Shown here: positions 3,234-62,692 of the stretch, one piece after another
Layout of the letters: every line of letters starts with the position of its first letter
Numbering within the stretch: position 1 is the first letter of the stretch
Virus record (IMG/VR): IMGVR_UViG_3300035698_030063
Length of the DNA stretch: 64,000 nt
Origin: an uncultured virus (IMG/VR IMGVR_UViG_3300035698_030063)
Lineage: Duplodnaviria; Heunggongvirae; Uroviricota; Caudoviricetes
Reading direction: 5' to 3' (one strand)
Notes under the pieces: model-generated
What the model was told of the DNA's origin: nothing
Seen by the model: only the letters and a program-made list of their open reading frames with translations
Database searches by the model: none
Translations under genes and position numbers: made by a program

Positions 3234-3827
3234 ATGATGTCAGAATTTGAAGAAATTAGTGAAGATTTAGAAGTAAGTCTTACAAATAGGGAAATTAACG
3301 AAAAGACTCCATATGTGGATATAGAGCTTACTATGGGAGATATTACACAGATTGAAGTAGATGCTGTTGTTAATGCGGCACATGACGATCTTACAGGAGG
3401 AGGGGGAGTTGATGGGGCTATTCATAAGGCGGCAGGTCAGAAGCTCTTGGGAGAATGTCTTAATTTGTATGGATGTCCTCAAGGAGAAGCTAGAATTACA
3501 GGTGCTTATGATATGCCTTCTAAATATGTTATTCACACTGTTGGTCCTGTTTGGGTTCCTTCTTTACCTCCTGATATAAAATTTAGGATGTTAAGAGATT
3601 GTTATAACAGTTGTTTATTATTAGCTGAGAGTCAGGGATTAAAATCAATAGCATTTCCTTGCATTTCCACAGGTGCTTATTGTTTTCCAAAAGATTTAGC
3701 ATCTACGTGTGCTTTTGAAACGATTAAAACGTTTTTTAATGATCGTAAGGGTACGTATATAGATGAAGTTTACATTGTTTGTTTTGATAAGCAGAATTTT
3801 AAAGAATATGAAAAAATATTAACTTAG
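3234..3827 (+). CDS. Macrodomain protein (YmdB/MacroD-like ADP-ribose hydrolase)
   Basis: GDIT..VDAVVNAAH..L.GGGGVDGAIH.AAG, VIHTVGPVW and SIAFPCISTGAYCFP motifs. Confidence 0.92.
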   Translation: MMSEFEEISEDLEVSLTNREINEKTPYVDIELTMGDITQIEVDAVVNAAHDDLTGGGGVDGAIHKAAGQKLLGECLNLYGCPQGEARITGAYDMPSKYVIHTVGPVWVPSLPPDIKFRMLRDCYNSCLLLAESQGLKSIAFPCISTGAYCFPKDLASTCAFETIKTFFNDRKGTYIDEVYIVCFDKQNFKEYEKILT

Positions 3828-3840
3828 AAGGTGGTAATGT

Positions 3841-4059
3841 ATGAGATTAAGTAAAGCATCGAAGACACCAAGGAATTTGCCTTGTACCTGTGGTAGTGGA
3901 AAGAAATATAAAAAGTGCTGTTTGGTGAAACAGCAGGAGCAAGAAGCTATACAGTTCAAAGCTATGAGATTGGCGGCAGAGGCTAAAGAAGTAGAAAAAG
4001 AGAATATTGATAGATGCACTAACTCAGACCAAAATAAAGTTGTTGAAAAAGATGCTTGA
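3841..4059 (+). CDS. SEC-C motif (Zn-binding) protein
   Basis: RNLPCTCGSGKKYKKCC. Confidence 0.85.
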   Translation: MRLSKASKTPRNLPCTCGSGKKYKKCCLVKQQEQEAIQFKAMRLAAEAKEVEKENIDRCTNSDQNKVVEKDA

Positions 4060-4183
4060 ACAAAATGGCATAAATGATATGTTTGATTTTCAAGTTGACG
4101 AAAATACTGGTAAATTGGTTATAACTAAGAAGCAGAAAACAGATAAATTTATAGATAGTAGATTTGACATTTTGGATTTATGA
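4007..4183 (+). CDS. Small protein with C-terminal FIDSRFDILDL tag (58 aa from TTG 4007 or 43 aa from ATG 4052; not in ORF track)
   Basis: ...MLEQNGINDMFDFQVDENTGKLVITKKQKTDKFIDSRFDILDL-TGA (4181-4183); fills the gap between neighbours. Confidence 0.7.
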   Translation: MIDALTQTKIKLLKKMLEQNGINDMFDFQVDENTGKLVITKKQKTDKFIDSRFDILDL

Positions 4184-4184
4184 T

Positions 4185-4706
4185 ATGGTAGAAGAAGTAA
4201 AATTTGGTGATAAGATAATGGGCAAACCTAAAAAGAATCAAAGGGGTTTTATTCTTTACCCTCCTAAGCCTGAAGAAAAGATTAAGGTTCGTTTTGTTGG
4301 TAAGCAACAAAAGATATATCAACAGTGGAATAGTGCTACAAAAACGTTTACTTGTTCTGAAAGAAAGCAAGAAGGATATATTACTAGGGTGGTTTCTTTT
4401 GTAATAGATAGAGCGGATGAGAAAATCAAGGCTTTTTTATGTCCAGCTTCTGCATATCAGCAATTGGGAAATTTAGGTGAGCCTGATCATGATTTTGTTG
4501 TCCATAGACATGGCAGGGGTTTGAATACTAAATATGATGTAATAAGTTTAGGAAAGACTGAGGTTAGTCAAGATCTTTTGGATAGAATAGAGATTACTGC
4601 AAATACTTATTCTCTTTCAGATATTTTTATAAGAGACGTTAAATGGGAGCTTTTGGATAAAGATTATGAACCTATTGAAAATAGATTTGATATTTTAGAT
4701 TTGTAA
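4185..4706 (+). CDS. gp32-like single-stranded DNA-binding protein-like, with C-terminal PIENRFDILDL tag
   Basis: KVRFVG..W...RVVSFVIDRADEKIK...YQQL...DHDFVVHRHGRGLNTKYDV resembles phage gp32-like OB-fold SSBs; ATG 4185 preferred over TTG 4164. Confidence 0.55.
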   Translation: MVEEVKFGDKIMGKPKKNQRGFILYPPKPEEKIKVRFVGKQQKIYQQWNSATKTFTCSERKQEGYITRVVSFVIDRADEKIKAFLCPASAYQQLGNLGEPDHDFVVHRHGRGLNTKYDVISLGKTEVSQDLLDRIEITANTYSLSDIFIRDVKWELLDKDYEPIENRFDILDL

Positions 4707-6379: not shown

Positions 6380-6801
6380 TGGAGTGTAAAATGTTAAAAA
6401 AGCCTGTTTTTGAGAATTTTACGGAATATTGGTATTATGCCAGATACTTATCGAGGGAACAGAGAAAACTTATATTTAAAAGTCTTTCTTCTAAACAAAG
6501 AAAGTTCTTAGATAATTCTTATTTAAGCGAGGGATGGTGTGATTTATTTTATCGTAATGAGGTTGATGTAAAAATAGATGAACTGAAAGAATTTTATGGT
6601 TACGATGTTCTAGAGATACGTTTAAAAGTTTTAAAAGGAAAAAGTGTGTATGTCCCCGCTAAATTTTGGAAAATAGCAGAAGAGCAGTTTAATCAGTATG
6701 TTCCAGAAGCAGTTAATTTTGTTATAGGAGGTTTGAGAGCTATTCCTGATAAGGAGAACAAACAAGTTTGTCTGATTGTTTATGACCCATCAGATGATTG
6801 A
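6379..6801 (+). CDS. Hypothetical protein
   Basis: TAATG coupling; 140 aa. Confidence 0.65.
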   Translation: MECKMLKKPVFENFTEYWYYARYLSREQRKLIFKSLSSKQRKFLDNSYLSEGWCDLFYRNEVDVKIDELKEFYGYDVLEIRLKVLKGKSVYVPAKFWKIAEEQFNQYVPEAVNFVIGGLRAIPDKENKQVCLIVYDPSDD

Positions 6802-6839
6802 AATTTTACAATTTTATATTTTTAATTACTGGGAGTCCT

Positions 6840-7682
6840 ATGTCTAGAAAAAAATGTAATGGGAATGGAAATGGTAATGACAGTAGTGTTGAGAAAAATA
6901 GTAAAATAAAAAGTGAAGTAAAGAAGAAATACATAAAGCCGAGAATATCAGTAACGGCAAAAAGTGAAAATCAAAGATTGCTTTTAAAATCAATCAAAGA
7001 AAACTTAGTCACAATTGTAGCAGGCCCTCCAGGAACTGGGAAAGCTCAACCTTTAGATTCAAAAGTCTATACTCCTAATGGGGTTAAGCTAATGAAGGAT
7101 ATAAATATTGGAGATGAAGTTTCCACTCCTGACGGAGGAGTTTCGAAGGTTATAGATGTTTTTCCTCAAGGTGAAAAGGATGTTTATCGTATATTTTTTA
7201 TGGATGGAGATTATGTCGAGTGCTGCAAGGATCATTTATGGAGAATTAAAGACAAATATAAATACAAGGAAAAATATAAAAACAAATATAGAGTAGAAGA
7301 TAGTTAATAGGAAGATAAAAGAGACTAATCATATTGGTAAAAAAAGTGTCAATGTATAAGTGTGAATGATGATAAGAAGTTATATCTAACAGATAATTTT
7401 ATTGTCACTCATAACACATTTAGAAATTCTTTTATCATTCTTGATGAAGCTCAAAATACTAGCCCAGAACAAGTTAGAATGTTTCTAACAAGGATAGGGG
7501 AGAATTGTAAGGTTGTTATTACAGGGGATCCTTTTCAAACCGATATTAGAGGTAAAAACGGGCTAGTAGATGCTTGTGAAAGATTGGAGGGAGTAAATAA
7601 TCTTAGTATTATTGAATTCACCAAAGAGGATATTGTAAGAAATCCTATTGTTGCGGAAATTGAAGAAAGATATTCTGAGTAA
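6840..7682 (+). pseudogene. phoH: PhoH-like ATPase, intein-interrupted, frameshifted and internally deleted
   Basis: KSENQ..L...GPPGTGK (Walker A) | intein | TFRNSFIILDEAQN...FLTRIGENCKVVITGDPFQTD...DIVRNPIV. In-frame stops at 7305-7310, 7326 and 7338; the usual segment between Walker A and RGR-T is absent. Confidence 0.85.
7044..7415 (+). mobile_element. Degenerate Ala-start mini-intein (HINT domain, no endonuclease)
   Basis: AQPLDSKVYTPNG...CCKDHLW (blocks A/B); CQCISV...LYLTDNFIVTHN|T (blocks F/G); KIVNRKIKETNHIGKK lies in a shifted frame. Confidence 0.85.
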
Positions 7683-11106: not shown

Positions 11107-11667
11107 ATGGAGATTAATAGAGTTTGGAATATGCCTAACAAATGGACTTTTAAAATAAAGCCTATTAGAGAGTTATTAAAAAAATATGTAAATCAAGAAA
11201 AAATATGGTTAGATCCTTTTGCAGGAGAAAACAGCCCTGGAACTATTACTAATGATTTAAATCCACAAAGGGATACTGATTATCATATGGATGCAAGAGA
11301 TTTCTTACATATGTTTGATAATGAATATGCAGATGGTATTCTTTATGATCCACCATATTCTGTTACGCAAGTGAAACAGATATATGATGGTATTGGTAAA
11401 GAGGTTACATTTAAAGAAACAAGAGCAAGTTTCTGGAGAGAAGCTAAAGATGAAATAACAAGAGTTATTAAGGATGATGGAATAGTTATTAGCTTTGGAT
11501 GGAATTCTAGTGGAGTTGGTAAAACTAATGGTTTTGAAATTATAGAAGTTTTAATGGTTCCTCATGGTGGAATTCACAACGATACAATAGTCGTGGTAGA
11601 AAAAAAAGTTTCAAAATCTATTTGTGATGATGTGGATTTGTTTGAAGACGAGATGAGTAGTATATGA
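11107..11667 (+). CDS. Adenine (amino) DNA methyltransferase, solitary phage type
   Basis: LDPFAG (motif I), DPPYS (motif IV), MPNKWTFKIKPI N-terminus, HGG.HNDTI C-terminus. Confidence 0.85.
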   Translation: MEINRVWNMPNKWTFKIKPIRELLKKYVNQEKIWLDPFAGENSPGTITNDLNPQRDTDYHMDARDFLHMFDNEYADGILYDPPYSVTQVKQIYDGIGKEVTFKETRASFWREAKDEITRVIKDDGIVISFGWNSSGVGKTNGFEIIEVLMVPHGGIHNDTIVVVEKKVSKSICDDVDLFEDEMSSI

Positions 11668-11834
11668 ATATAACAGTAGTATGTTCTCATTGTAGAAATC
11701 ATGATAAAGATCCTAATATAGAAATAAATTTTAGAGATAATAAGATATATTACTTTTGTCCTGAATGTGAAAAAGAAAGTATCATTAGTCTAAAAGCTGT
11801 TTTGCCCCCACTTCCAAAAACAAGAAGGATGTAA
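11664..11834 (+). CDS. Small Zn-ribbon protein (56 aa, not in ORF track)
   Basis: MNITVVCSHCRNHDKDPNIEINFRDNKIYYFCPECEKES...; ATGA overlap with MTase stop. Confidence 0.7.
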   Translation: MNITVVCSHCRNHDKDPNIEINFRDNKIYYFCPECEKESIISLKAVLPPLPKTRRM

Positions 11835-11835
11835 T

Positions 11836-12408
11836 ATGTTTTTTATAGTTAATAAAACAAAAAGCACTGTTTCAATAGTTGATATTAATATCACCTTAGG
11901 CCCCAGGCAGGCTGTAGATTTAGATAAATTAATGAGCAGGAGTAAGTCAGAAGCTTCCAAGATGCTAAAGAGGGCTAGTAAAAAAGGACATATTGATGTT
12001 CGTATTAAAGATGGTGGTAAAATATCTAAAATAAAATCTTCAGAAAAAATAAACGATCTTAATGATTTTAAAAAAGAAATTTTGGAAGAAATGAAAGGAT
12101 TGTTAAATCAGACTCAGCAACCAACCCCACAGCAAAGCTTAGGTAAAGAAGATCTAGCAGCTTTTGCTCAACAGATTATAAGTAGTATACCTAAGTCAGA
12201 AACTATTATTATACAAGGTCAACCTCAAGAAGTTAGAGAAGATGAGGATGTTGAAATGGATGAAGATATGTTGGCAAAGATTAATGCAAGAACTGTCGAT
12301 AAGATAGTAGAAGGCACTGATATTAATGCTATGAATTATAAAGAAGAAAAGCAAGAAAATACGATATTAGATAATATAAATGAACTAGAAGATTTGCTTT
12401 TTGACTAA
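11836..12408 (+). CDS. Hypothetical protein with acidic C-terminus (candidate partner of the actin-like protein)
   Basis: AAGGA SD; 190 aa; partner role inferred only from position. Confidence 0.6.
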   Translation: MFFIVNKTKSTVSIVDINITLGPRQAVDLDKLMSRSKSEASKMLKRASKKGHIDVRIKDGGKISKIKSSEKINDLNDFKKEILEEMKGLLNQTQQPTPQQSLGKEDLAAFAQQIISSIPKSETIIIQGQPQEVREDEDVEMDEDMLAKINARTVDKIVEGTDINAMNYKEEKQENTILDNINELEDLLFD

Positions 12409-12439: not shown

Positions 12440-12712
12440 AAGAAAAATCCAGAATATAAGCAATGGACAAAAGATGTATATAAAAAAGATGGTTATACTT
12501 GTCAAAAATGTTTTAAGGCGGGACGTAAATTGAATGCTCATCATATAGAAGGTTTTGCTGAAAATAAAAAAATAAGAACAGATATTAATAATGGTATAAC
12601 TTTTTGTCAAGATTGTCACAATTTATTTCATGCTATTTACAGTAAGAAAAATATAACTAAAAAACAATTAGATGATTTTATGATTAAAAAAAGTATGAAG
12701 AGGACTGGCTGA
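12440..12712 (+). pseudogene. HNH endonuclease remnant (N-terminus lost)
   Basis: KNPEYKQWTKDVYKKDGYTCQKC...KLNAHHIEGF...DINNGITFCQDCHNLFH; in-frame TAG at 12437 and no upstream start; homologous to C-terminus of 14300-15382. Confidence 0.8.
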
Positions 12713-12713
12713 T

Positions 12714-12932
12714 ATGGCTTTTAATAGAGAAAATTTTACAGATGAAGAAAAAGAAGCTATAATATCCCATGCTTTAGAGATTGACGAAGGAAGAATTGTT
12801 TTAGCTCAAGCTTTTGCTAATACTATTCCTAGTTATATTGAAACGGGAAGAAAACTTCTTAAGATGGACGAAATTATGAAAGAGGAAATACCTGATCCTA
12901 TTGACAGTAGATTTGATATTCTAGATTTGTAG
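12714..12932 (+). CDS. Small protein resembling a major capsid protein N-terminal fragment, with C-terminal PIDSRFDILDL tag
   Basis: TDEEKEAIISHALEIDEGRIVLAQAFAN.I....GRKLLKMDE recalls N-termini of large-phage HK97-fold capsid proteins; ends RFDILDL-stop. Confidence 0.55.
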   Translation: MAFNRENFTDEEKEAIISHALEIDEGRIVLAQAFANTIPSYIETGRKLLKMDEIMKEEIPDPIDSRFDILDL

Positions 12933-12940
12933 GATATATC

Positions 12941-13177
12941 ATGAGATGTAAATCGCATAAGAGATATAAGGGCGAGTTGAGACCACGATGTAGCTGTTTA
13001 GATTGTTGGATAATATATATAGAGTCGCATTTGGATTTAGGAATTATAGACGATGCTATTGAGCATCAAAAAGAATTTCACGGAGGATGGAGTATTGAGT
13101 ATGGAGACACAGACGATAATTTGGTAACAAATTATTTATTTAAAAAGAAAAGAGAATTGGAGTTAAGATATGAGTAG
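12941..13177 (+). CDS. Hypothetical protein with N-terminal C/H Zn motif
   Basis: CKSHKRYKG..RPRCSCLDCW; AGGA SD. Confidence 0.6.
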   Translation: MRCKSHKRYKGELRPRCSCLDCWIIYIESHLDLGIIDDAIEHQKEFHGGWSIEYGDTDDNLVTNYLFKKKRELELRYE

Positions 13178-14225
13178 AGCATGTGGAGTTGATGTCGGGA
13201 CGATGTTTTTTCAGGTTGCTGAAAATGATAAAGATGGAAAAATAGATCTTAAAGAGATTAGAAATGCTTTTGTACAACTGGAAGCTTCTGAAGATATTGA
13301 GCAAGTTCTTGCTCAAAATGACTGGCAATATGTTAGTGACGATAAGAACTATTACGTGCTGGGAGAGGATTCCATGAGAGTGGCTAGGATGTTCCCAGGC
13401 AAAGTAGAACTGAGGAGACCTATGCAGGGAGGAGTTCTTAATAAGGGAGAAGATAAGAAGATGCTTGTGATGGCTAAAATGATCGAATCTTCTATCGGTA
13501 AAGCTCCTGATAATAATTCTTTAGTTTGTACTTGTATATCTTCTGATCCTGTAGATGGAGCGCAAGATAATTTATTTCATAAGGTTAGATTAGAGGGTAT
13601 GTTCAAACGTCTTGGATGGAATATTAAGGTTATCGAGGAAGGTCATGCTGTTATTCTATCTGAGAATCCATCTATAACTGATTCAGATGGTAAAAGAATT
13701 CCTTTTAGTGGAATAGGCGTATCTTTTGGTGCTGGTAAGGTTAATTGTGTTCTTGCATATAGAGGTCTCTCAGTTGTCGGTATGAGTGCTGCTAGATCTG
13801 GAGATTGGATAGACAGTAAAGTTGCTGAACAAACTGATGTCCCTATTACTAAGGTAACTAATGTAAAAGAGACTAAGTTAGATTTTAACAATATAGATTA
13901 TGATGATGATATTGTTTTTGCTTTAGATGCTTATTACACTAATATGATTGAGTATGTATTTAAGAATTTTGCTAAGAAATTTTCTAAAGAGAAGAGCGAG
14001 TTTGAAGCTCCTTTAGATATTGTGATAGCAGGTGGAACTTCTATACCTAAAGGATTTAGAGATAAAGTGAAATCTGTTGTAGAAGGATTAGATCTTCCTT
14101 TTGAGATTAAGGATGTGATCCATTCAGAAGATCCGAGAAATGCTGTGGTTAAGGGTTTGTTAACTCAGGCTATTATTTCTCAAAAAAAGCTTAAGGGCAG
14201 GAAAATAAATGAAATGCTAGATTAA
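13170..14225 (+). CDS. Actin-fold ATPase, volactin-like (MreB/MamK superfamily)
   Basis: Phosphate-1 GVDVGTM; RNAF; RRPMQGGVL; EEGHAVILSE; phosphate-2 GIGVSFGAGKVN; RSGDWID; adenosine loop IVIAGGTS.PKGF; DPRNAVVKG. Confidence 0.85.
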   Translation: MSRACGVDVGTMFFQVAENDKDGKIDLKEIRNAFVQLEASEDIEQVLAQNDWQYVSDDKNYYVLGEDSMRVARMFPGKVELRRPMQGGVLNKGEDKKMLVMAKMIESSIGKAPDNNSLVCTCISSDPVDGAQDNLFHKVRLEGMFKRLGWNIKVIEEGHAVILSENPSITDSDGKRIPFSGIGVSFGAGKVNCVLAYRGLSVVGMSAARSGDWIDSKVAEQTDVPITKVTNVKETKLDFNNIDYDDDIVFALDAYYTNMIEYVFKNFAKKFSKEKSEFEAPLDIVIAGGTSIPKGFRDKVKSVVEGLDLPFEIKDVIHSEDPRNAVVKGLLTQAIISQKKLKGRKINEMLD

Positions 14226-14249: not shown

Positions 14250-14286
14250 AAGAAGTTATATGTATAAGCGTATAACTTCTTTTTTT
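14250..14286 (+). terminator. Hairpin/terminator overlapping putative late promoter
   Basis: AAGAAGTTATATG...CGTATAACTTCTT plus T run. Confidence 0.65.
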
Positions 14287-14299
14287 ATGGAGATATTCA

Positions 14300-15382
14300 A
14301 TGTCAAAAAAATTAAAACATAGTTATATAAAGCAATATTTTAAAGATAATAATTGTGAATTATTAGAAAAAGAATATATAAATAATTTAACTAAAATGAA
14401 ATATAGATGTAGTTGTGGGGATATTAGCGAAATAACTTTCAATAGTTTTAAAAGGGGATCACGATGTTTTACTTGTGGTAAGGAAAAAATGGCAGAAAAA
14501 CAGAGATTAACATATGACTATGTTAAAGATATGTTTAGATTTTCAGGATGCGAGTTATTAGAAAAAGAATATAAAAATTGTATGGTTTTAATGAAGTATA
14601 GGTGTAGCTGTGGGAATATGAGTAAAATAACTTTTAATCAATTTCAACAAGGGCAAAGATGTGCAAAATGTGGAGGAACAGAAAAACTTACAATAGAATA
14701 TGTGAAAGGATTTTTTGAAGAGCAGGGTTGTGAGCTGTTAGAAAAAGAATATGTTAATAACAGAACAAAAATGAGATATATGTGTAAATGTGGTAATTAT
14801 TCAAAAATTGGATTTGATAGTTTCAAAATGGGACGAAGATGCATGAAGTGTAGAGGATCGGAAAAATTAATATATGAATATGTTGAACAATATTTTAAGG
14901 AACAAGGTTGCGAGCTGATAGAGAAAGAATATGTTAATAATAGAACAAAAATGAGATACAAGTGCGATTGTGGAAGTATAAGTGAAATATGTTTTAGTGA
15001 TTTTAAACAAGGGAGGAGATGTAAAAAATGTGGATATGAGAAAATATCTGGTGAAAATCATTGGAATTATGATAGTAGTTTAACAGATGAAGATAGGCAA
15101 GATAGAAGGCTTATAGATGGATATCTTCAGTGGATAAAAAGCATTTATAAAAATAATAATTATACTTGCCAGAAATGCATTAAAAGAGGTGGCAAATTGA
15201 ATGCTCATCATATCGAAAATTATTCTGCTAATAAAGGGTTGAGGGTAGATATGAATAATGGAATATGTTTTTGTGAGTCATGCCATAAACAATTTCATAA
15301 AAAATATGGTAAAAGAAATAATAATAAACAACAGTTAGATCAATTTATAGGAGATAAAAATGGGATATTGTGTAGAGTCTGA
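14300..15382 (+). CDS. HNH homing endonuclease with four N-terminal Zn-ribbon repeats
   Basis: Four copies of KLTxEYV..F...GCELLEKEY.N..TKM.Y.CxCG....I.F..F..G.RC..C; C-terminal YTCQKC...KLNAHHI...NNGICFCESCHKQFH. Confidence 0.88.
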   Translation: MSKKLKHSYIKQYFKDNNCELLEKEYINNLTKMKYRCSCGDISEITFNSFKRGSRCFTCGKEKMAEKQRLTYDYVKDMFRFSGCELLEKEYKNCMVLMKYRCSCGNMSKITFNQFQQGQRCAKCGGTEKLTIEYVKGFFEEQGCELLEKEYVNNRTKMRYMCKCGNYSKIGFDSFKMGRRCMKCRGSEKLIYEYVEQYFKEQGCELIEKEYVNNRTKMRYKCDCGSISEICFSDFKQGRRCKKCGYEKISGENHWNYDSSLTDEDRQDRRLIDGYLQWIKSIYKNNNYTCQKCIKRGGKLNAHHIENYSANKGLRVDMNNGICFCESCHKQFHKKYGKRNNNKQQLDQFIGDKNGILCRV

Positions 15383-31974: not shown

Positions 31975-34900
31975 ATGGGACAGACTCGCTATTATTCGCT
32001 CGCTTTTTTTGATTTCGGAGATAAATTAAATTCTTCTATCAATGTTAGAAAAGAAATAGATCGTTTTGTTGTTATTGATAAACAACTGTATGGCATGTAT
32101 AAGATATTTGGAAATGGAGTTATCGATGGGTTTAATGTTAGTGACGCTGGCTTTCAGTCAGGTAAAGGTATCTCTGTTAATATTTCTCAAGGTACGGGGG
32201 TTATTAATTTTATAGCTGCTCAAAATGAAATTCCTGGAACAGTTACTGGATTACCCCCCAATACAGTTGTTAGTATATATGCGCAAATAGTTGGATCTAC
32301 ATATCTAGATAGAAAGGTTAAATTTTTATATTCTAGAACTCCAATTTCTAATGCTATTAAATTAGCCTTAGTGTCTACTGGTGCTGATAATATATCGTTC
32401 ATAGATAATAATGCAAGAGACTTAATTGGTTTTGAAGAGATTATACAAGATGCTATTAATGAGCACAAACATAGAGGGACTCCTACTAAAATTAATTTAG
32501 AAGAAGAAGTTAAAAATCAATTACCAGGAGCTAGGCTTGAAGGTATTGATGCTTCTAAAGTTGTTAGTGGGAGATTTGATATAGATAGGATTCCGCTAGT
32601 AGATCATAACGATTTAGAACATAATGGAATGTTAAATCATGCTGCTCTTGATTCTTATGTTAGAACATTTTCACAGAACAATAAGGAACTACTAGGTGAA
32701 ATTAATATGGTTAATCTTTTAAGGATGATTATATTTCATAAATATAAAGATGTTGATGTGGACGAATATTTTATTAATGAACTAGCTTTGATTCCAGGTG
32801 TGTCTCCAAATGAGTTTATAGATTTTACTGCTACCACTGCTAATATTGATTTAGATAGTGGATGTATTAGTGGGATACCATCTGTATCAGGAATTTTTAC
32901 TTCAGTATTTTGGAACGATACATTTTCGTTTGATACTAATACTTTTAATAATAATATTTTAATAGATAATGATACTGTATTTTTAGATGCATCTGATAGC
33001 TCTACAGAATCTCTTGCTGATTTTTCTGGTGGTAGGCAGCCTTTTGAAGAAGAGATGATAATTGTAGACAGAAATCAACAAGTAGTTGTAGCTGATGGTG
33101 AGGAAGGAAATCTCGTAGGTCAAATGGGTGGTGGTGGTACTCTGAATTATTTTTATAGATTAGATTATGAGTCAACTGAATATAAAAATTGGGATGGGAT
33201 ATACGATCAAATAGTTATTAAAATAAAGACTACAGAGCAAATTCATGACCCTGTTTATATGTATGTAGTAAATGGTAGTAATATAAGAAATGACGGAGTG
33301 AGTGGTACTGGGAGCATTGAGGCGGGCAATATAGATGGGGTTAGAGTGCCTAGCTCTTCATGGGAGATTTTAGCTAAAGATGAAAACTCGGCAACTTTAT
33401 TAGAAAAAACTTTTAATATACATGAATTGGGGCTAACTGAAGTATCTCAAATTACAATTTTTACATCAGATGATTTTACATTTGAGATAGATGATTTAGA
33501 AGTTAGAAGAACGAATATTGTTTCTGAAACTGGAACTATAAAATTTCAGTATAGCACAGAAGCTAGTGTTACTTTTCATACCATTTTTTATGATATTGAC
33601 ACTCCTTCAGGAACTACTTCTTCTTTGAGATTAAAAACTGCATCTACAGTTGATTCTTTATCAAGAGCATTTTGGACGCAAAATCTTAATTCTGGAGATG
33701 TGGTTGCTATAACTGGTTCTACGGCAGAAATAGAAGTTGTAATGACGAGTGATGATAGTAGAACTATTTCTCCAGTTCTTAATAGTATAGAGTTAAGATT
33801 ATTAACAGATGCTAATTTTACAGGTTTTGTTATAGATACAGAAGATGAATTTGTTAGGGGAACTATAAGTAATTTAGATATTAATCCAGCTGTACAAGTA
33901 GGACAGGATATTTTAAACATATCAACTCCTATTAATGTTGGAGGTGTATATTTTGCAAAAGCAGGATCAGTAAGTGAGAATAATAATGTAGGTGATGCTA
34001 TATATGGATTTAGTGGAGCGCCTGGTGGAGACGGTTTTTATGGTATGCCTATATCTCCTGTTCAAGCTAGATATTGGAATAGTTCTTCTACAAGAGGATT
34101 TAAAACGGTATCTTCTGTTGTTAGAAGATTTGATAATTCTTTTTTGATTTCCGATTTAGGCAACTCAAGAGTGCTACAAGTTGATAGGAATGGTAATTTA
34201 ATTAAAGGTTTTGGTTCAACATATTCTACTGACATAAATTTTTATCCATTATCTGCTGTTTACAACCCTACTAATCAGATTTTATCTGTTGCCTTTACAC
34301 AAGCTGTTGTTGTGTCAGATATAACAGAAATTTCATTTTTCATTGGAGGAGGTTCCCAAATTGCCCTGACTTTAGATGATACTATTTTAAATAATAACAA
34401 ATCAGGGAATAAAATTTTAGAAATAGAGTTAGATGATGATACCGCTGTTAGACTATTGAATGCCACAAGTGATAATCTTACAGTTGATTTTGGGGCAGGA
34501 GCATTCACGGCTACTATTCAGGTTAATGAGGGCATGAAAGCAACAGGAAATAATATATTTAGTCTTGTAAGTGGATTAATATGTTTCGTTGGTGATTTTA
34601 CATTTATAGATAATATTAAGCATCCTGTTGGAGTATATGAAAATAGTGAAAATAATTGGATGATTTTAAATTCTTCGATATTTTATGGAGGACCTGATCA
34701 AGGAACTGGTGTTGTTCTAGACCCTACAGAAATAGTAGATCTTGAAGCTACGGAAGTTCCTAGTATCGTAGAAATTGATCCCGATGATGTATCTAATACT
34801 ACGGATAAATTAATTTCAAGTGATGTTACATTTTCTGATTATACTCTTGGTGGGATCGTTGAATACACTACTAATCAAAGATTTGTAGTAGCTGGCATAG

Positions 34901-35280
34901 AGGAAGATAGTAATGCTATTTTGGTAGGAACAGGACAAGATTTATTAGATAAATATGATGATCCTCCATTAGATGTTCAGTTTAGAGCCGCTGCTGTAGA
35001 TGCTTTGAAGGGTTATGTTGGGAGGGTATTTGTTATAGATAAGGTTAATAATAAGCAACAAGCTATGTACACTAGCCCTGATGGGACCTATGCGAGCGAT
35101 GTATCAGGCTTTAGTAATGGAGATCTTTCAGTAGCAGAGTCAGCTTTTGCAGATGCTTCTGGAAGACTTGTTAGAATAGATGCATTTGGCTCTGTCACAT
35201 GGTCATATGGCGTAGGAACTTTCCATATTATTAATGATAGTAAAGTGGTAGGTGATGATACTGTAATAGTAAGCGTTTAA
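31975..35280 (+). CDS. Putative tail appendage protein with beta-propeller-like C-terminal half
   Basis: GAGGAG SD; N-terminus paralogous to 56774; HKH motif; NHL-like ISDLGNSRVLQVDRNGNLI. Confidence 0.6.
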   Translation: MGQTRYYSLAFFDFGDKLNSSINVRKEIDRFVVIDKQLYGMYKIFGNGVIDGFNVSDAGFQSGKGISVNISQGTGVINFIAAQNEIPGTVTGLPPNTVVSIYAQIVGSTYLDRKVKFLYSRTPISNAIKLALVSTGADNISFIDNNARDLIGFEEIIQDAINEHKHRGTPTKINLEEEVKNQLPGARLEGIDASKVVSGRFDIDRIPLVDHNDLEHNGMLNHAALDSYVRTFSQNNKELLGEINMVNLLRMIIFHKYKDVDVDEYFINELALIPGVSPNEFIDFTATTANIDLDSGCISGIPSVSGIFTSVFWNDTFSFDTNTFNNNILIDNDTVFLDASDSSTESLADFSGGRQPFEEEMIIVDRNQQVVVADGEEGNLVGQMGGGGTLNYFYRLDYESTEYKNWDGIYDQIVIKIKTTEQIHDPVYMYVVNGSNIRNDGVSGTGSIEAGNIDGVRVPSSSWEILAKDENSATLLEKTFNIHELGLTEVSQITIFTSDDFTFEIDDLEVRRTNIVSETGTIKFQYSTEASVTFHTIFYDIDTPSGTTSSLRLKTASTVDSLSRAFWTQNLNSGDVVAITGSTAEIEVVMTSDDSRTISPVLNSIELRLLTDANFTGFVIDTEDEFVRGTISNLDINPAVQVGQDILNISTPINVGGVYFAKAGSVSENNNVGDAIYGFSGAPGGDGFYGMPISPVQARYWNSSSTRGFKTVSSVVRRFDNSFLISDLGNSRVLQVDRNGNLIKGFGSTYSTDINFYPLSAVYNPTNQILSVAFTQAVVVSDITEISFFIGGGSQIALTLDDTILNNNKSGNKILEIELDDDTAVRLLNATSDNLTVDFGAGAFTATIQVNEGMKATGNNIFSLVSGLICFVGDFTFIDNIKHPVGVYENSENNWMILNSSIFYGGPDQGTGVVLDPTEIVDLEATEVPSIVEIDPDDVSNTTDKLISSDVTFSDYTLGGIVEYTTNQRFVVAGIEEDSNAILVGTGQDLLDKYDDPPLDVQFRAAAVDALKGYVGRVFVIDKVNNKQQAMYTSPDGTYASDVSGFSNGDLSVAESAFADASGRLVRIDAFGSVTWSYGVGTFHIINDSKVVGDDTVIVSV

Positions 35281-56773: not shown

Positions 56774-59700
56774 ATGCCTTATAAAACAAGATATTATGAT
56801 TTAGAAGCTTTTAAGACTGGGGATAGATACTCATCTCGAACAGATCGAAGAAGATTCACCATTATAGATAATGAGATGGCGTTCATAACAGATTTTATTG
56901 GATCTGGTCTAATCTTTGGTTGGGATATTACAAACAACGGAGATGGAACTGTATTTATCTCTAATGGAATGGGATTAATTAATAGAAGGGTTGTTGAATC
57001 ATTTGGTGGATTTGATGTGACTCTAAGTAGTAATTCCGTTCATTATTTTGTGATAGAGGCGAGAGATGGAGTTGTAGGTGGAACAAGCTCTCATTCTAAT
57101 ATAGTTAAGGTTACAGCTATTGATACAATCTCTCCTGATCCTCCTACAGGAGTCCAAAAAGAAGATAGTGTGTTGGACTACTTATCTACTCTTCCTTCTA
57201 TTAGTGACGAACTGACGGATTATCTTAGAAATTTAATGGATAGAGGTGGAGAAGATGATAGTCTAGAGTTGATACCTTATAAGGAAGTAGCATTTAGTTG
57301 GTCTGCTAATACAGAAGTAGATTTTAGTCACTATAAAATAACAAGAGGATTTGGAAGTGATGTAACGGTTCTAGGTGTAACGACAGAATTAATTTATGTT
57401 GATATTAATTTAGAATCTGATACTAATTATGAATACCAAGTTATCGCTGTTGATTTAAGTGGTAATGAAAGTGGTACTACAGAGATAGAGATTTTTACAG
57501 ATGTTGATTCAAGAATTCCATCTGCTCCTCAATTTGTTCAAGTATTTCCAGGCGATGAAACCTTGCAAGTTATATGGAATAACTCTCCTACTAGTAATGT
57601 TCCTAATTATAGGGTAGAGGTTCAGGAATTAAATATAGACTATAATGTAGTTGGTAGTCCTACTGTAACTATTATTCCTGCGGACACTCAATCGGAATTT
57701 GGTTCTAGTTATGTTATTTTTGAGAATCTTAGTTTAAACATAAATTATGAAATAACAGTTTATTCTCAAAGTAAGGCAAGTATTTTATCAGACGGTGCTT
57801 CTAAAAAAGTTTTGTTAAGAAGCAATCCAGGAGCTGGTGAGGTAAATAATATTGAATTAGAATTTTCGATAAGTACTTTTGAAAATGTTGGAGTAGAAAC
57901 AAAAGTATCTTGGAAATATCAACGTTCTAACCCATCTATTTCTTTTGCGGAAAAGTTTTTAGTAACTTTTATTGAAAATGGAATAAGATTTTCAGAACCT
58001 ATAGAGATACTAGAGACAGTAGCTAATATAACATGTCCAGGAGGGGATGAGTCTAGCGGTAAATGTTACGAATTGGATGTCAAGTATATACCCTATATTA
58101 ACAATAACATTTTAGAATATGAGTCTATTAAACAATATAATCCTTATGTTGTTGTCGTTCAAACTGAAGATTCTGATGGTAATATTAGTTCAGGAACAAT
58201 TATTAGAGTTTCAAGGACATCAGTTTCAGATACTCTTCCTGCTATAGCTGATTTTACCATGGAGAGAGAGTCGAATAATGATATATTTTTACAATGGATT
58301 AATCCAACACAACCTTATTTTGCATATAACAGATTGACTGTTAATATAATAGATTTAACAACAACAGATGTTCTTGGAACTAATTTTGTTGATAATGCAA
58401 TTATAGGTAAAGCTACAACCTATATCATACCTTCCTCTCAGTTTGATATTAATTTTAGGTACACTGTTACTATTACTCCATATGATGTTTTTACTCAAGA
58501 TGGTGGGGACGGTGCTGAAGGGGAAGGTTTTTCACAAGTTAAGCAATTCACAGAATCTCCTAATATAGTAAGGCCTTCTATTCCTACAGGCTTGAAAATT
58601 AATCCTGGGGATAAGTTGACAAGTTTATCTTGGAATTTAGATACTAAAGATGAAGACATAGAATTTTATAAGATTTATAGAGCGCTATATTCGACATATC
58701 AGCGTTCAAGTAATTTTTCTGTGATAAATACAATACCTTCATCATTACATGTTTTTACTGATTATACACCATCTAATGGGACTAGTTACACTTATTTTGT
58801 AACTGCTGTTGATACTCATGGAAAGGAATCGTTAAATCCTTTAGATGACGGTCATATATCTACTAGAGCCGTATCTGGTACTTCTAGCGATAGTTCGTAT
58901 CTATCCTCTCCAGAAGGTTTAATAGCTTCATATGGTAGCAATAATACAGATGTCGAATTATCTTGGGAAATTAGTGGGGGAACATTTGATGGTTATGAGA
59001 TTTTAAGATCAATAGGTAATAATTATTCTTTTATAATTATTGATCGTGTCTCTGTGTCAGTAATTAGCTATATAGATATTGATGCTTTACTAAAACATGA
59101 TGAAGAATACTATTATATGGTAAATAAATATAGAGATGAGGTATCATTTATAGTTAAAAGTTCTTCTGCATTAACAGATAATCAAATATCTATAGGGAAG
59201 GTAACTACTTCTGGTGGTGTGAGTAACGTTAATATTGATCTTTCATCTGTAGTTAATATTGCTAATTTAGAAGATCCTTTAACAGATTTAACTAATACAT
59301 CTTTAAATGTTCATCGTCATGCTAACGATTTAGGTATAGATAAAAGAATAGAATTACGTTCTAATGTAAGAATATCTGACTGGACAACGGTTGATTATCA
59401 AGTTTATACTACTCAACAGGATATACAAGGTGCTACCAATTATTTTGTGCAAATATCAGGAGAATTGAACGAAGAGTATTTTATCACTAATGGGATAGTT
59501 GATGCAGTAGCATTAGCTCAAGCTCGTGCTGGAGAATCTCCTATTTTATTTGAGATAGTTGAAGATAAAGATCAAATTGTTTTTAATGAGTCATTATTTT
59601 CTCAGTCTAGTCTTATTGTTACTCCTTATGCTGAAGAACCTACTGTTACTTTAGAATTATTAGGAATATCTGAAGTTGATAATCTTCTTCCAGAAGTTAA

Positions 59701-62692
59701 AGTAGGAGATATGAGCGCGTCTCAATTTGGTAGTGGTCGTTTTAAATTTACTCAAATGTCAACGATTAATCATAATGGTAGAAAATCAGAAAGATTATTA
59801 CCTATTCGTTTGCCTATGCAGACTTTTGATAATTTTGTTTATAGCTTAGCATCTACATATGAAGATACAGATAGAAATAAGATGGGAACATCTGTAACTT
59901 TTTATGATATTATAATTACAAATGGAGAAGTAATATTAGCAGCTACTAGTAATGGGATATGGATAAGTGAGAATTATGGAAATGATTGGGATCAAGCTTC
60001 TGATTTTTCTGTAGCTGTGCGTAAATTGTACAAATCTATTGCTGGAGATTATTATGCATTAACAAATTATGGAGTTTATAAAAATAACGGAACAAGTTTT
60101 AGAACATGGGATTTGATGGACGGTGTAGAATTTTCAAAAAGTATAAGAGACATAACTGAAGATAGAAGTGGTAATATATATGTAAGCACTGATCTGGGCG
60201 TTTTTAAATTAAATAGTGAAATTATCCCTTACATAGAAGATACTTGGCAAAAGATGCCTATATTCGGAGCTAGGAGTTCAGAATCTTATGCTATTATTTA
60301 TGATGGTGATCATGATAGAGGATCAATCCCAGGAACAGGAAGAATTCTTGTAAGTAATGAGATAGGTTTGGTCCAATCTGTTGATGAAGGGTTGACATGG
60401 AATTACATAGCTGATTTAGAAGCTCTTATTAAAGTTAGAGATTTTATAATTGATAATGGTTATATTTTTGCTTTATCAGATAACTCTATCTATAGAGAGA
60501 AGATAGGAGAAAATGTTTTTGTAAAAATAGCAGACATAGATTCTACTACGACTAAAGATATAGTAATTTTTGCAGGTCAATTTTATATCACTACTAATAA
60601 TGGTCTGAAAAAATCTTTAGCTCAAAACATATATACTGAAACTAATATTTCTATTGTAGCTACTTTTGAAAAGTTAAATATAAATAATATAGTTATTCCT
60701 GCAACTACTATAGATTTAATTGATGAAAATATGTTTGTTGGTTCTGATAGGTTGCTATATGTAATGGAGTCGAATGGTAATGTGGGACTACAACTTGAGC
60801 AAAAAGAAACGGTAGTCCCAAGCGTATATGTAAATGGAGTGTTACAAAAATTAGGATTTTATTATAATAATAGTGGAAATGAACAAAACATAAGTTTTGA
60901 TGAAATAAGAGATGAAGATAGCTCTATTTCTGTTTCTAATAAATATGATATATATAATTCAGAATTTGGAGGTTGGGTATATAATAAATACGATGCCAAA
61001 TTTAAAATTTTTAATAATAATTTGGTGTTTGGAGAATCTAGAGATGAAATTTCAATAGATATTAATCAATTTGCTGTGGTTGTTCTTCCTACTTATGATG
61101 ATAATAATGCTCATAAAGAAGGAGCAGACAAGTATAAAGTTGATCTAGATGCTAATCTTATTTCGATAACAGATGAAGCACTTCCTGAAGGAGATGCTTT
61201 AGTAAGTCTTATTTCTGATACATATCAAAATTTTGAATTATTTTTATCACAGTTGTATGAAGAAACTAGAATAGTTATTAACGAAGACGGGACAACATCT
61301 GATTTTGTGTTACCATCTATACCTACAGATGTGATAGTTAAGAGGGATAGCGTATCAAATAGTGGAGAATCTATACAAATAGAAGAACCAGTTTATACTG
61401 AGATTAATGCTGATAGAGGAACTTCTTATGACACATCTGTTAATGTGATAGATGGACTTTTTACATTTGGTTTGCCTTTTGATAAATTTGATTCTCTTAC
61501 ATTAGATATTTTTGATGTAACTATTAAAAATGCTGGAGAAAATTCTCATAGAGAATTAGAGAATGTTTTTGAGGAAGCATATTCGGGGCCTTCATCATAT
61601 TTATCACAGGTTCAACAAGTTAATTTAGTTAAGATGGGTTTATTTACAGAGAAGACGTATCCAGGAGAACAAGAAGCTATTAATCCGTTACTTCAGTTTA
61701 AAGCTGTTATTCCAGATAATAGCGATTGGTATGATGTCTTAAATTCTACTATTAATTATGATGAGCAGGAAATTAATGAAGACATTACATTAGCAATTAA
61801 TTATCCTTCAGAAGTAATCTACATAGGAGAAATAGAGACTGTTATGGTTGGTGGTAAGGGTGGAGTCATATCTATAAATGCAATTACTTTAGAAATTAAT
61901 GAGGTAGATTTTGGAATTATTGATTCAGATACGTTGATTAGAGGTATATTACAAACAAGTAACGGCATATTTATTTTAACAGATGATGAGATTTTTGTTT
62001 CACTTGATCTGGGAGCTACTTGGAGCGAGTATAATAGAAGCGGACTACCTAATCAATTATATTCTATTGGGACTATTAACAATAATTTACTAGTCGGTGC
62101 TGAAGATGGTATCTATATAAAGTTGTCTAATTCTGATGTCATAGATTGGGAGAAAGTTAAAGATTCTGAGACTCCTGTAGAAATTATGCATAGTTCTAAT
62201 ATTTTATTTGTTGTAGTTGGAGTTATAAATGAGGATGATGGAATACAAATAGATAAGAAGATTTTTATTACTGGTAATGGATTTACTTATTCAGATACTG
62301 GTATCGGAGAAGATTTGGATATCACAGATATTGATAGACATGGGTTCGTAACTACCTACGTATCAACTAATCAAGGATTATATTCTGATAATGGATCATT
62401 TAATAGTTTGGAACCTAAGTTGCAAAATGTAGATTTGGGGGAACTTATCCAAGAAGGAGATACTATTAACGATACGACTACTGATGATGCAAATAAGGTC
62501 GTTATAGGGGCTAGTAATGGTTCGTATGGTTTAATAACAGATAACATATTGAATATTAAAGGAGATACTTCTCTAGAAGTTATTCATAAAATCCTTATAG
62601 TGGGAGATGATGAATGGCTGTTTGGTCAGAATCTGTTTAAAGTTCCATTCTTAGATTATCCGATTAGATTAACAACAGGCGCTCCTATGTAG
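56774..62692 (+). CDS. Giant virion protein (1972 aa): FN3 repeats and BNR/Asp-box propellers
   Basis: YEYQVIAVDLSGNES, YTYFVTAVDTHGKES (FN3); SENYGNDW, SVDEGLTW, SLDLGATW (Asp-boxes); N-terminus paralogous to 31975. Confidence 0.75.
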   Translation: MPYKTRYYDLEAFKTGDRYSSRTDRRRFTIIDNEMAFITDFIGSGLIFGWDITNNGDGTVFISNGMGLINRRVVESFGGFDVTLSSNSVHYFVIEARDGVVGGTSSHSNIVKVTAIDTISPDPPTGVQKEDSVLDYLSTLPSISDELTDYLRNLMDRGGEDDSLELIPYKEVAFSWSANTEVDFSHYKITRGFGSDVTVLGVTTELIYVDINLESDTNYEYQVIAVDLSGNESGTTEIEIFTDVDSRIPSAPQFVQVFPGDETLQVIWNNSPTSNVPNYRVEVQELNIDYNVVGSPTVTIIPADTQSEFGSSYVIFENLSLNINYEITVYSQSKASILSDGASKKVLLRSNPGAGEVNNIELEFSISTFENVGVETKVSWKYQRSNPSISFAEKFLVTFIENGIRFSEPIEILETVANITCPGGDESSGKCYELDVKYIPYINNNILEYESIKQYNPYVVVVQTEDSDGNISSGTIIRVSRTSVSDTLPAIADFTMERESNNDIFLQWINPTQPYFAYNRLTVNIIDLTTTDVLGTNFVDNAIIGKATTYIIPSSQFDINFRYTVTITPYDVFTQDGGDGAEGEGFSQVKQFTESPNIVRPSIPTGLKINPGDKLTSLSWNLDTKDEDIEFYKIYRALYSTYQRSSNFSVINTIPSSLHVFTDYTPSNGTSYTYFVTAVDTHGKESLNPLDDGHISTRAVSGTSSDSSYLSSPEGLIASYGSNNTDVELSWEISGGTFDGYEILRSIGNNYSFIIIDRVSVSVISYIDIDALLKHDEEYYYMVNKYRDEVSFIVKSSSALTDNQISIGKVTTSGGVSNVNIDLSSVVNIANLEDPLTDLTNTSLNVHRHANDLGIDKRIELRSNVRISDWTTVDYQVYTTQQDIQGATNYFVQISGELNEEYFITNGIVDAVALAQARAGESPILFEIVEDKDQIVFNESLFSQSSLIVTPYAEEPTVTLELLGISEVDNLLPEVKVGDMSASQFGSGRFKFTQMSTINHNGRKSERLLPIRLPMQTFDNFVYSLASTYEDTDRNKMGTSVTFYDIIITNGEVILAATSNGIWISENYGNDWDQASDFSVAVRKLYKSIAGDYYALTNYGVYKNNGTSFRTWDLMDGVEFSKSIRDITEDRSGNIYVSTDLGVFKLNSEIIPYIEDTWQKMPIFGARSSESYAIIYDGDHDRGSIPGTGRILVSNEIGLVQSVDEGLTWNYIADLEALIKVRDFIIDNGYIFALSDNSIYREKIGENVFVKIADIDSTTTKDIVIFAGQFYITTNNGLKKSLAQNIYTETNISIVATFEKLNINNIVIPATTIDLIDENMFVGSDRLLYVMESNGNVGLQLEQKETVVPSVYVNGVLQKLGFYYNNSGNEQNISFDEIRDEDSSISVSNKYDIYNSEFGGWVYNKYDAKFKIFNNNLVFGESRDEISIDINQFAVVVLPTYDDNNAHKEGADKYKVDLDANLISITDEALPEGDALVSLISDTYQNFELFLSQLYEETRIVINEDGTTSDFVLPSIPTDVIVKRDSVSNSGESIQIEEPVYTEINADRGTSYDTSVNVIDGLFTFGLPFDKFDSLTLDIFDVTIKNAGENSHRELENVFEEAYSGPSSYLSQVQQVNLVKMGLFTEKTYPGEQEAINPLLQFKAVIPDNSDWYDVLNSTINYDEQEINEDITLAINYPSEVIYIGEIETVMVGGKGGVISINAITLEINEVDFGIIDSDTLIRGILQTSNGIFILTDDEIFVSLDLGATWSEYNRSGLPNQLYSIGTINNNLLVGAEDGIYIKLSNSDVIDWEKVKDSETPVEIMHSSNILFVVVGVINEDDGIQIDKKIFITGNGFTYSDTGIGEDLDITDIDRHGFVTTYVSTNQGLYSDNGSFNSLEPKLQNVDLGELIQEGDTINDTTTDDANKVVIGASNGSYGLITDNILNIKGDTSLEVIHKILIVGDDEWLFGQNLFKVPFLDYPIRLTTGAPM

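Follow-up and report, generated by a model that had tools for sequence, protein, structure and literature searches.

The micro-protein gene and its surroundings

The DNA analyzed here is a one-strand stretch of 64,000 nucleotides from an uncultured phage (32% GC; hereafter the window). At positions 12714 to 12932 it contains an intact open reading frame (ORF) for a protein of 72 amino acids, referred to below as the micro-protein, and the 72-residue translation is identical to the sequence quoted in the initial annotation of this DNA. The gene lies between the remnant of a homing endonuclease gene and the gene of a volactin-type actin. The features of the locus are as follows:

11664-11834, + strand: Zn-ribbon protein of 56 aa, actin module (conserved gene order)
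11836-12408, + strand: adaptor of ~190 aa with the tail ELEDLLFD, actin module (conserved gene order)
12530-12712, + strand: HNH homing endonuclease remnant, C-terminal part without a proper start, directly upstream of the micro-protein gene (Pfam HNH, E 3.6e-5)
12697-12704, + strand: Shine-Dalgarno-like GAAGAGGA, 9 nt upstream of the micro-protein ATG (read from the sequence)
12714-12932, + strand: micro-protein gene, 72 aa, copy of a capsid N-arm with a C-terminal tag, ATG start and TAG stop (12930-12932)
12735-12824, + strand: residues 8-37, helical hairpin FTDEEKEAIISHALEIDEGRIVLAQAFANT, the core in common with the N-terminus of the capsid protein (similarity searches; AF2 helices at residues 10-20 and 24-37)
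12825-12878, + strand: residues 38-55, third helix in the model, where GRKLLKMDE resembles GRKLLMVDE of the capsid protein (similarity, AF2 model)
12879-12929, + strand: residues 56-72, acidic linker and tag, unstructured (AF2: no secondary structure, pLDDT 48-54)
12894-12929, + strand: tag core DPIDSRFDILDL of the micro-protein (tag logo from 70 tails)
13170-14225, + strand: volactin-type actin gene, downstream of the micro-protein gene (Pfam PF25216, E 2.1e-58)
14250-14281: terminator-like hairpin 3' of the volactin gene, the sole one found

In the AF2 model of the micro-protein, which is of moderate confidence (pLDDT 68), residues 10-56 form three helices, while the last 16 residues are unstructured, which fits a short linear docking motif. 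Judged from its sequence, the protein is composed of two modules, a duplicate of a capsid N-arm (approximately residues 8-55) and a disordered acidic linker ending in PIDSRFDILDL-COOH. General searches were of little help in its assignment. The ORF had no match in Pfam and PHROGs (phrog_2522 was not reached at E ≤ 0.1), the ESM Atlas gave no usable lead, Foldseek of the model against the PDB returned 0 matches at E ≤ 0.001, and a search for homologues of near-equal length recovered only the micro-protein itself and one relative. Five contigs carry the window micro-protein; the first 44 bases of its ORF were found on one metagenome contig of 1,675 bp and on none of the viral contigs.

A degenerate DNA pattern for the C-terminal tail identified 25 loci on 12 viral contigs, three of which are huge, namely G001 (548 kb, CheckV 100%), G002 (351 kb), and G003 (298 kb). 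These were used to compare the genomic context. The order Zn-ribbon, adaptor, volactin-type actin, and terminator-like hairpin is the same in seven viral contigs, and the adaptor tail is conserved as EL[ED][DG]L[LF]…, different from the RF[DE]ILDL tag described below. In the window, G001, and G002, the micro-protein gene is located in a same-strand block between the adaptor and volactin genes, with the Zn-ribbon gene and a gene encoding 875-1070 aa upstream, and neck and tail genes downstream. In G001 it lies ~50 kb, across the contig ends, from the head module, which comprises the capsid gene (290 aa) together with genes for a scaffold-like protein of 262 aa and a decoration-like protein of 187 aa. 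One micro-protein gene is present in G002 and two adjacent ones in G003, where both copies are found in an array of tagged accessory genes beside a PHP/DnaE-like gene, outside the head-neck block. Five more distant volactin modules have no micro-protein gene between adaptor and actin, and G002 carries a full-length HNH gene (304 aa) at the site of the HNH remnant of the window. The position is thus an insertion site, and the adjacency to the actin gene is not read as a sign of a common function.

Some further features of the window were recorded. A second HNH homing-endonuclease gene is found at 14300-15382, and two HNH genes hence flank the micro-protein/actin block. A PhoH-like ATPase is split into an N-terminal P-loop part (6798-7307) and a C-terminal part (7362-7682) with a gap of 54 nt, and two giant tail proteins (31975-35280, 1101 aa, and 56774-62692, 1972 aa) have homologous N-termini of ~50 residues. 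These N-termini (TRYY.L..F..GD…RF..ID…) are conserved in G001 and G002 and, in the complete genome G009, at least in the protein of ~1,085 aa. A promoter scan of the DNA gave 21 sites against 26.9 ± 5.5 in shuffles, that is, no excess.

Similarity to gp27-type capsid proteins

The initial annotation had noted that capsid proteins of large phages with the HK97 fold begin with a pattern similar to that of the micro-protein. This pattern proved to be that of the capsid family of Bacillus/Lysinibacillus phage G. In a phmmer search of the PDB sequences with the micro-protein ORF alone, the best match was 6wkk_A, 'Gp27 major capsid protein' (E 4.3e-7), with residues 8-60 of the micro-protein aligned to residues 4-59 of gp27, and the next-best matches were at E 0.21 and 0.74. 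A profile of nine members of the micro-protein family matched the same chain at E 3.7e-14, and no other of the 177,635 distinct sequences reached E ≤ 1. By tblastn, phage G gp27 was the only match among 50,697 phage records (46% identity, E 2e-5), and blastp of the window micro-protein against the capsid protein of G001 gave 50.9% identity over 57 aa (E 5.9e-12). The supposed kinship is thus borne out by significant similarity to the capsid proteins of relatives (G001 and phage G), the capsid gene of the window phage itself lying outside the sequence seen.

Fifteen matches at E ≤ 1e-3 were obtained by phmmer in 1.84 billion representative proteins. Seven of these (P0003, P0004, P0005, P0009, P0012, P0013, and P0014) are proteins of 56-73 aa that share the N-terminal motif of the micro-protein and end in its tail or a variant of it, and two (P0006 and P0007) repeat the motif two or three times in tandem and lack the tail. 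The other six have capsid-type N-termini and include the full-length P0008 of 290 aa, as well as five short or aberrant gene calls (P0010, P0011, P0015, P0016, and P0017). P0008 was assigned to phrog_2522, 'major head protein' (E 6.8e-63), which is also matched by the small tagged P0014 (E 1.4e-11), and a profile from 43 relatives of P0008 matched 6wkk_A at E 8.4e-110. In the GenBank records of phage G, gp27 is the major head protein and gp26 a capsid decoration protein, and gp27 is reported from purified particles in the multi-omics paper on phage G (PMC12484599).

The micro-protein and gp27 (PDB 6WKK; phrog_2522) have in common the motif T/S-x-EEKE-x-I-x-x-AL-x-T-x-EGR-x-ALAQA … GRKLL-x-VD, and the similarity to the capsid family is confined to capsid residues ~1-59. 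With 72 aa against the 280-290 aa of gp27, the micro-protein does not contain the complete fold of ~280-290 residues (E-loop, spine helix, P and A domains); without the E-loop, P domain, and A domain it cannot form a shell. The tag, on the other hand, is present on the micro-protein and absent from the gp27 capsid protein. The micro-protein is a paralogous fragment of the gp27-type capsid family and not a capsid protein. An AF2 model of the capsid protein, built from 43 sequences of 79-92% identity, was unusable (pLDDT 50.8), and because of this poor model (pLDDT ~51) the N-arm could not be placed in the fold.

A family of small proteins with a hairpin and a tag

Members of the micro-protein family are 56-77 aa long and have an N-terminal hairpin of the form T[DE]xEKExII..AL.T.EGR..LAQA, to which the window protein conforms (hairpin HMM, E 2.4e-17). 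Nine members, with 46-67% identity to the window micro-protein, make up alignment A2. When all frames of at least 35 aa in the window, G001, G002, G003, and G009 were searched with the hairpin HMM, only two capsid proteins and five tagged micro-proteins were identified. All 13 small homologues are intact and keep both hairpin and tail; the tail is the tag or a close variant in 12 of them and a degenerate RLDILDL in one. The window-type tail is also found on P0002-P0005, P0009, P0012, the G001 copy, and the first G003 copy, and variants are seen in G002 (RFKILDL), the second G003 copy (RLDILDL), and P0013/P0014 (RFELMDF and RFELLDF). The segment of the GRKLLKMDE type (residues 38-55) is kept in approximately half of the family members.

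The small proteins share 27 to 71% identity with capsid N-termini, and the positions conserved most within the family are those common to the capsid protein. The G001 micro-protein (72 aa) is 62.5% identical to the G001 capsid protein over 32 aa (E 5e-10), and the window micro-protein resembles the G001 capsid protein (51%) more than it does its counterparts in G001-G003 (34-42%). Pseudogene-like decay, which the initial annotation had named as an observation that would speak against its reading, was seen in none of the 13 homologues. As to purifying selection, which it had proposed to check, dN was lower than dS in the five of six micro-protein pairs that were computable, but dS was saturated (1.7 to 27), so that the values are only weak evidence for selection. 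Taken by its conservation, the micro-protein appears to be a working mimic of the capsid protein.

The C-terminal RF[DE]ILDL tag

Five frames on the + strand of the window end in RF[DE]ILDL-stop (ends at 1359, 1598, 4183, 4706, and 12932), and the codons of the five tags differ. Besides the micro-protein, these are:

1015-1359, + strand: tagged protein of 114 aa (…YPINDRFEILDL), RF[DE]ILDL-stop
1356-1598, + strand: tagged protein of 80 aa (…DPIYDRFEILDL), RF[DE]ILDL-stop
4007-4183, + strand: tagged protein of 58 aa (…KFIDSRFDILDL), RF[DE]ILDL-stop
4164-4706, + strand: tagged protein of 180 aa (…EPIENRFDILDL), RF[DE]ILDL-stop

A macro-domain protein (PF01661, E 2.5e-37) is encoded at 3234-3827, among small genes that include these four tagged ORFs.

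In G001, 43 ORFs carry the tag, of which 27 form a single array (136-153 kb). In non-overlapping gene sets, tagged genes amount to 33 of 784 in G001, 26 of 484 in G002, and 14 of 481 in G003, and about 3-9% of the subclade's proteins end exactly in the tag. The tail, called a tag when the micro-protein was first described, is indeed a tag common to many unrelated small proteins, in the window (5 carriers) as well as in G001 (43). Seventy of the 79 strict occurrences of the motif are at the exact C-terminal end; of the other nine, six lie 1-5 and three 6-20 residues short of it, and no occurrence is more internal. The logo of the 70 tails reads P (position -11, 30 tails), I (-10, 49 tails), any residue, [DSN] (-8, 64 tails), followed by R F [ED] I L D [LI], with R, F, and D invariant. 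The Arg of the tag is encoded by AGA (40), CGT (16), AGG (10), CGA (3), and CGC (1), and all three stop codons occur after it. The use of both Arg codon families and of three stop codons points to selection on the peptide and not on a DNA element.

The tag carriers range from 58 to 371 aa, and a Pfam family above the cut-off was assigned to only one of 65 tagged proteins (DUF551). Their genes are mostly located in arrays of small orphan genes and look accessory or early. Among the 43 tagged ORFs of G001, the micro-protein is the only one that is a clear fragment of a larger, unrelated phage protein. Two other observations were made in G001. A protein of 118 aa (274084-274440) has the tail-like PINSRFELLLFE near its N-terminus, not at the C-terminus, and ~11 paralogues of 254-279 aa, encoded at 124.9-134.7 kb and 278.8-280.4 kb, share the C-terminus …W[KR].[HN]PFIN[EG], which is a second family-wide C-terminal motif, confined to one paralogue family.

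In 185,579 prokaryote genomes the tag pattern had 54 matches, 46 of which lie in frames of less than 50 codons, and none of those in longer frames has the P-I-x-[DSN] preface. These matches look like chance occurrences in AT-rich DNA. DNA words for RFEI[LF]DL-stop also recur in very short frames of prokaryotes from many phyla, where …[DE][FL]RFEILDL is a frequent form, and look like AT-rich simple sequence.

Distribution of the tag and the micro-protein

The capsid family gave 1212 matches, the best 120 of which have 79-97% identity; capsid relatives are encoded on 121 viral stretches, and identity among 80 viral contigs is 70-100%. The strict tag together with the micro-protein is restricted to a subclade of this family. 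All four tag-bearing sequences (the window, G001, G002, and G003) encode the micro-protein, with one or two genes per tag-bearing genome across contigs of 298-548 kb. It was identified in none of the seven genomes that have the same capsid family and no strict tag, namely phage G, G009 (461 kb, a complete genome whose capsid protein shares 90% identity with the G001 one), and G011-G015 (257-494 kb); in these seven, the family profile matches the capsid N-terminus only, and phage G has neither the micro-protein nor the tag. The occurrence in four of four tag-bearing and none of seven tagless genomes indicates that the micro-protein is an accessory of the tag system and not part of core head assembly. 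Likewise, since most phages with a 75-90% identical capsid protein lack the micro-protein, head assembly is independent of it. In G009 (407-417 kb and 194-218 kb), five tails have the weaker form [FW]D..D[LI][ED], and seven proteins end in …LPE; both kinds of ends may be other or degenerate tails.

A reader of the tag was searched for by gene presence and absence across G001, G002, G003, and G009, and none was identified. The contrast yielded 68 G001 genes with relatives in G002 and G003 and not in G009, including a stand-alone Clp_N protein, two sigma-like proteins, Ro60, and a glycan cluster; since G009 has five variant tails, this contrast is not clean.

The Clp_N protein of G001 (P0137, 207489-208208) is a stand-alone double Clp_N with a Cys-rich C-terminal part and has relatives in G002, G003, G012, and G013. 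As G012 and G013 are tagless, Clp_N was rejected as the reader. Volactin, a candidate from synteny, was set aside because five distant volactin modules lack the micro-protein and the adaptor tail is different.

Possible functions of the micro-protein

In HK97-fold capsid proteins, scaffolding proteins usually dock with their C-termini on the N-arm helices (P22, 80alpha), and the N-helix of encapsulins, equivalent to the N-arm, binds cargo-loading peptides. We tentatively suggest, as a possible reading held with low confidence, that the micro-protein connects the tag network to capsid assembly, as an anchor or bridge. The capsid-arm copy would retain the face that the real N-arm presents, during head assembly, to the scaffolding protein or to an adjacent subunit, so that the hairpin could dock on the assembling procapsid or scaffold, and the tail would plug into the same putative reader as the tails of the other tagged small proteins. 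The micro-protein might then be the single link coupling the tag network to the capsid, whereby the tagged small proteins would be brought to or into the head, or the reader would be brought to the head. Such an anchor would be a tag-system accessory, dispensable for capsid assembly as such.

The genomic context leans towards virion assembly: in the window and two relatives the gene belongs to a block on one strand, flanked by the volactin module and the genes for neck and tail. Several observations count against an anchor, however. The G003 copies lie outside the head-neck block, the tagged genes look accessory or early with a Pfam domain in only one of 65, most phages with a 75-90% identical capsid protein have no micro-protein gene, and the five distant volactin modules without the gene mark the position as an insertion site. 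A complex prediction for the G001 capsid protein (alignment A3) and the window micro-protein (A2) gave no answer (score 0.00, without controls) and counts neither way. Extended to the whole tag system, the anchor could be part of a protein-addressing system in which ~14-43 tagged effectors per genome are tied by the micro-protein to the procapsid interior, and are packed and injected with the DNA; we hold this extension to be rather improbable. In a sharper version, the tail would imitate the capsid segment RRFYIVD, as natural ligand of the N-arm hairpin. This segment is invariant in the capsid protein, and among the 173,038 residues of G001 the strict pattern RF.I[LV]D has just two occurrences remote from C-termini, one of them in the capsid protein; the HMMER alignment of the tail to the RRFYIVD segment was not significant, and the resemblance may be chance.

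A piece of capsid can also serve as an immune trigger, as is the case for the T4 Gol peptide with Lit. The initial annotation had raised a decoy that would carry an immune sensor or assembly factor to the tag receptor. Spelled out for a sensor, the capsid-arm copy would bind a capsid-reading host sensor without triggering it, and the tag would deliver the complex to the reader for sequestration or destruction. We consider such a decoy somewhat unlikely. Its premise is that defence can read the capsid protein or a short stretch of it, as Gol/Lit, CapRel, and Avs7/Dsr1 show. Direct triggering of bacterial immunity by capsid proteins is described for CapRel (PMC9712102) and Avs7/Dsr1 (bioRxiv 10.64898/2026.01.04.697583), and the micro-protein gene is accessory, tied to the tag system, and in G003 located among tagged accessory genes. 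However, Avs7/Dsr1 are described in passages of the preprint as recognizing whole capsid folds over extended interfaces and not the N-arm (bioRxiv 10.64898/2026.01.04.697583), and there is no known sensor for the gp27-type capsid family or the host. Moreover, a clear fragment of a larger, unrelated phage protein is seen in only one of the 43 tagged ORFs of G001, and the position in the head-neck block in three of four cases suggests expression that is late for a decoy. The triggers of Lit, CapRel, and Avs7/Dsr1 are carried on the real capsid protein, whereas here a separate capsid fragment is encoded by the phage; the passages on CapRel and Avs7/Dsr1 describe no phage-encoded capsid fragment as antagonist.

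It is quite unlikely that the micro-protein is an ordinary tagged cargo or effector, whose body arose by duplication of the 5' part of the capsid gene and now has an unrelated role, with the tag alone setting the destination. The low end of the 27-71% identity to capsid N-termini, to which many members have drifted, the loss of the GRKLL strand in about half of the small proteins, and the tagless tandem-hairpin proteins (P0006 and P0007), which suggest a free-standing small helical module, would be in agreement with such an origin. It is at odds with the most conserved positions of the family being those common to the capsid protein, with the window protein being closer to the capsid (51%) than to the G001-G003 micro-proteins (34-42%), and with the maintenance of one or two copies per tag-bearing genome across contigs of 298-548 kb.

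The extreme conservation of the capsid protein in the clade (79-97% among the best 120 of 1212 matches; 70-100% among 80 contigs) means that a poisoning fragment would act broadly, and the micro-protein could in principle be a weapon against co-infecting relatives, a dominant-negative N-arm that poisons the assembly of their near-identical capsids. We regard this as very unlikely, as the phage's own capsid protein would be poisoned too with no immunity device evident, and the need for a tag would be unexplained.

Clamp-binding tails are carried by gp43, gp33, and gp55 of RB69/T4, and in the T4 family such tails are found on the DNA polymerase and on clamp-dependent replication and transcription factors. 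The acidic-hydrophobic C-terminal peptide of the tag resembles them, and the micro-protein would accordingly be a factor bound to a sliding clamp. With none of 65 tagged proteins a recognizable polymerase, replication, or transcription protein, and with at least 40 small orphan proteins implausibly competing for one clamp, this reading is highly improbable. A functionless, dead remnant of a capsid-gene duplication, as the adjoining decayed HNH endonuclease at the insertion site might suggest, is already contradicted by conservation, since 13 of 13 homologues keep an intact frame, start, hairpin, and tail at 27-71% identity, a ribosome-binding site is present, and dN is below dS in the five computable pairs (weak, with dS saturated).

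Comparison with known systems and implications

The T4 capsid-targeting sequence and the cargo-loading peptides of encapsulins load proteins into HK97-fold shells. As with the tag, one short linker-borne peptide is common to unrelated proteins of one genome. The T4 signal differs in being N-terminal and removed by the head protease, whereas the tag is C-terminal in 79 of 79 strict occurrences. The encapsulin peptides have another sequence and serve few enzymes, whereas the tag has 14-43 carriers per genome, all of them small orphans of as yet uncultivated phages, whose entry into the head is hypothetical. A likeness to the capsid-arm copy is found in CpmB of SaPI1, which mimics the 80alpha scaffolding protein at the contact between scaffold and N-arm, and which is likewise a small protein copying one side of a capsid/scaffold contact. 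CpmB, however, copies the C-terminal helix of the scaffold and is encoded by a parasite of the phage, whereas here the phage itself copies the N-arm of its capsid protein.

No relevant paper was found among published texts with tag strings of the RF[DE]ILDL type, and none joining huge phages to shared tails or capsid-fragment proteins was found in main texts. A review of jumbo phages (PMC13282480) does not contain 'targeting sequence', 'C-terminal', or 'decoy', and the phage G multi-omics paper (PMC12484599) does not contain 'actin', 'decoy', or 'capsid fragment'. A portable address peptide and molecular mimicry are each already known, and the present combination and its scale are not.

Huge phages have hundreds of small orphan genes of unexplained logic, a large share of which is marked here by one invariant tail. 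The micro-protein is the first link of this tag system to a known protein, and its hairpin and peptide are usable as baits. If the micro-protein is an anchor, it would show that a portable peptide can load cargo into the head of a giant phage. If it is a decoy, no capsid fragment encoded by a phage against capsid-sensing immunity would have preceded it. In both cases a new design principle would emerge, in which tagged micro-proteins mimic core proteins of the very phage that encodes them.
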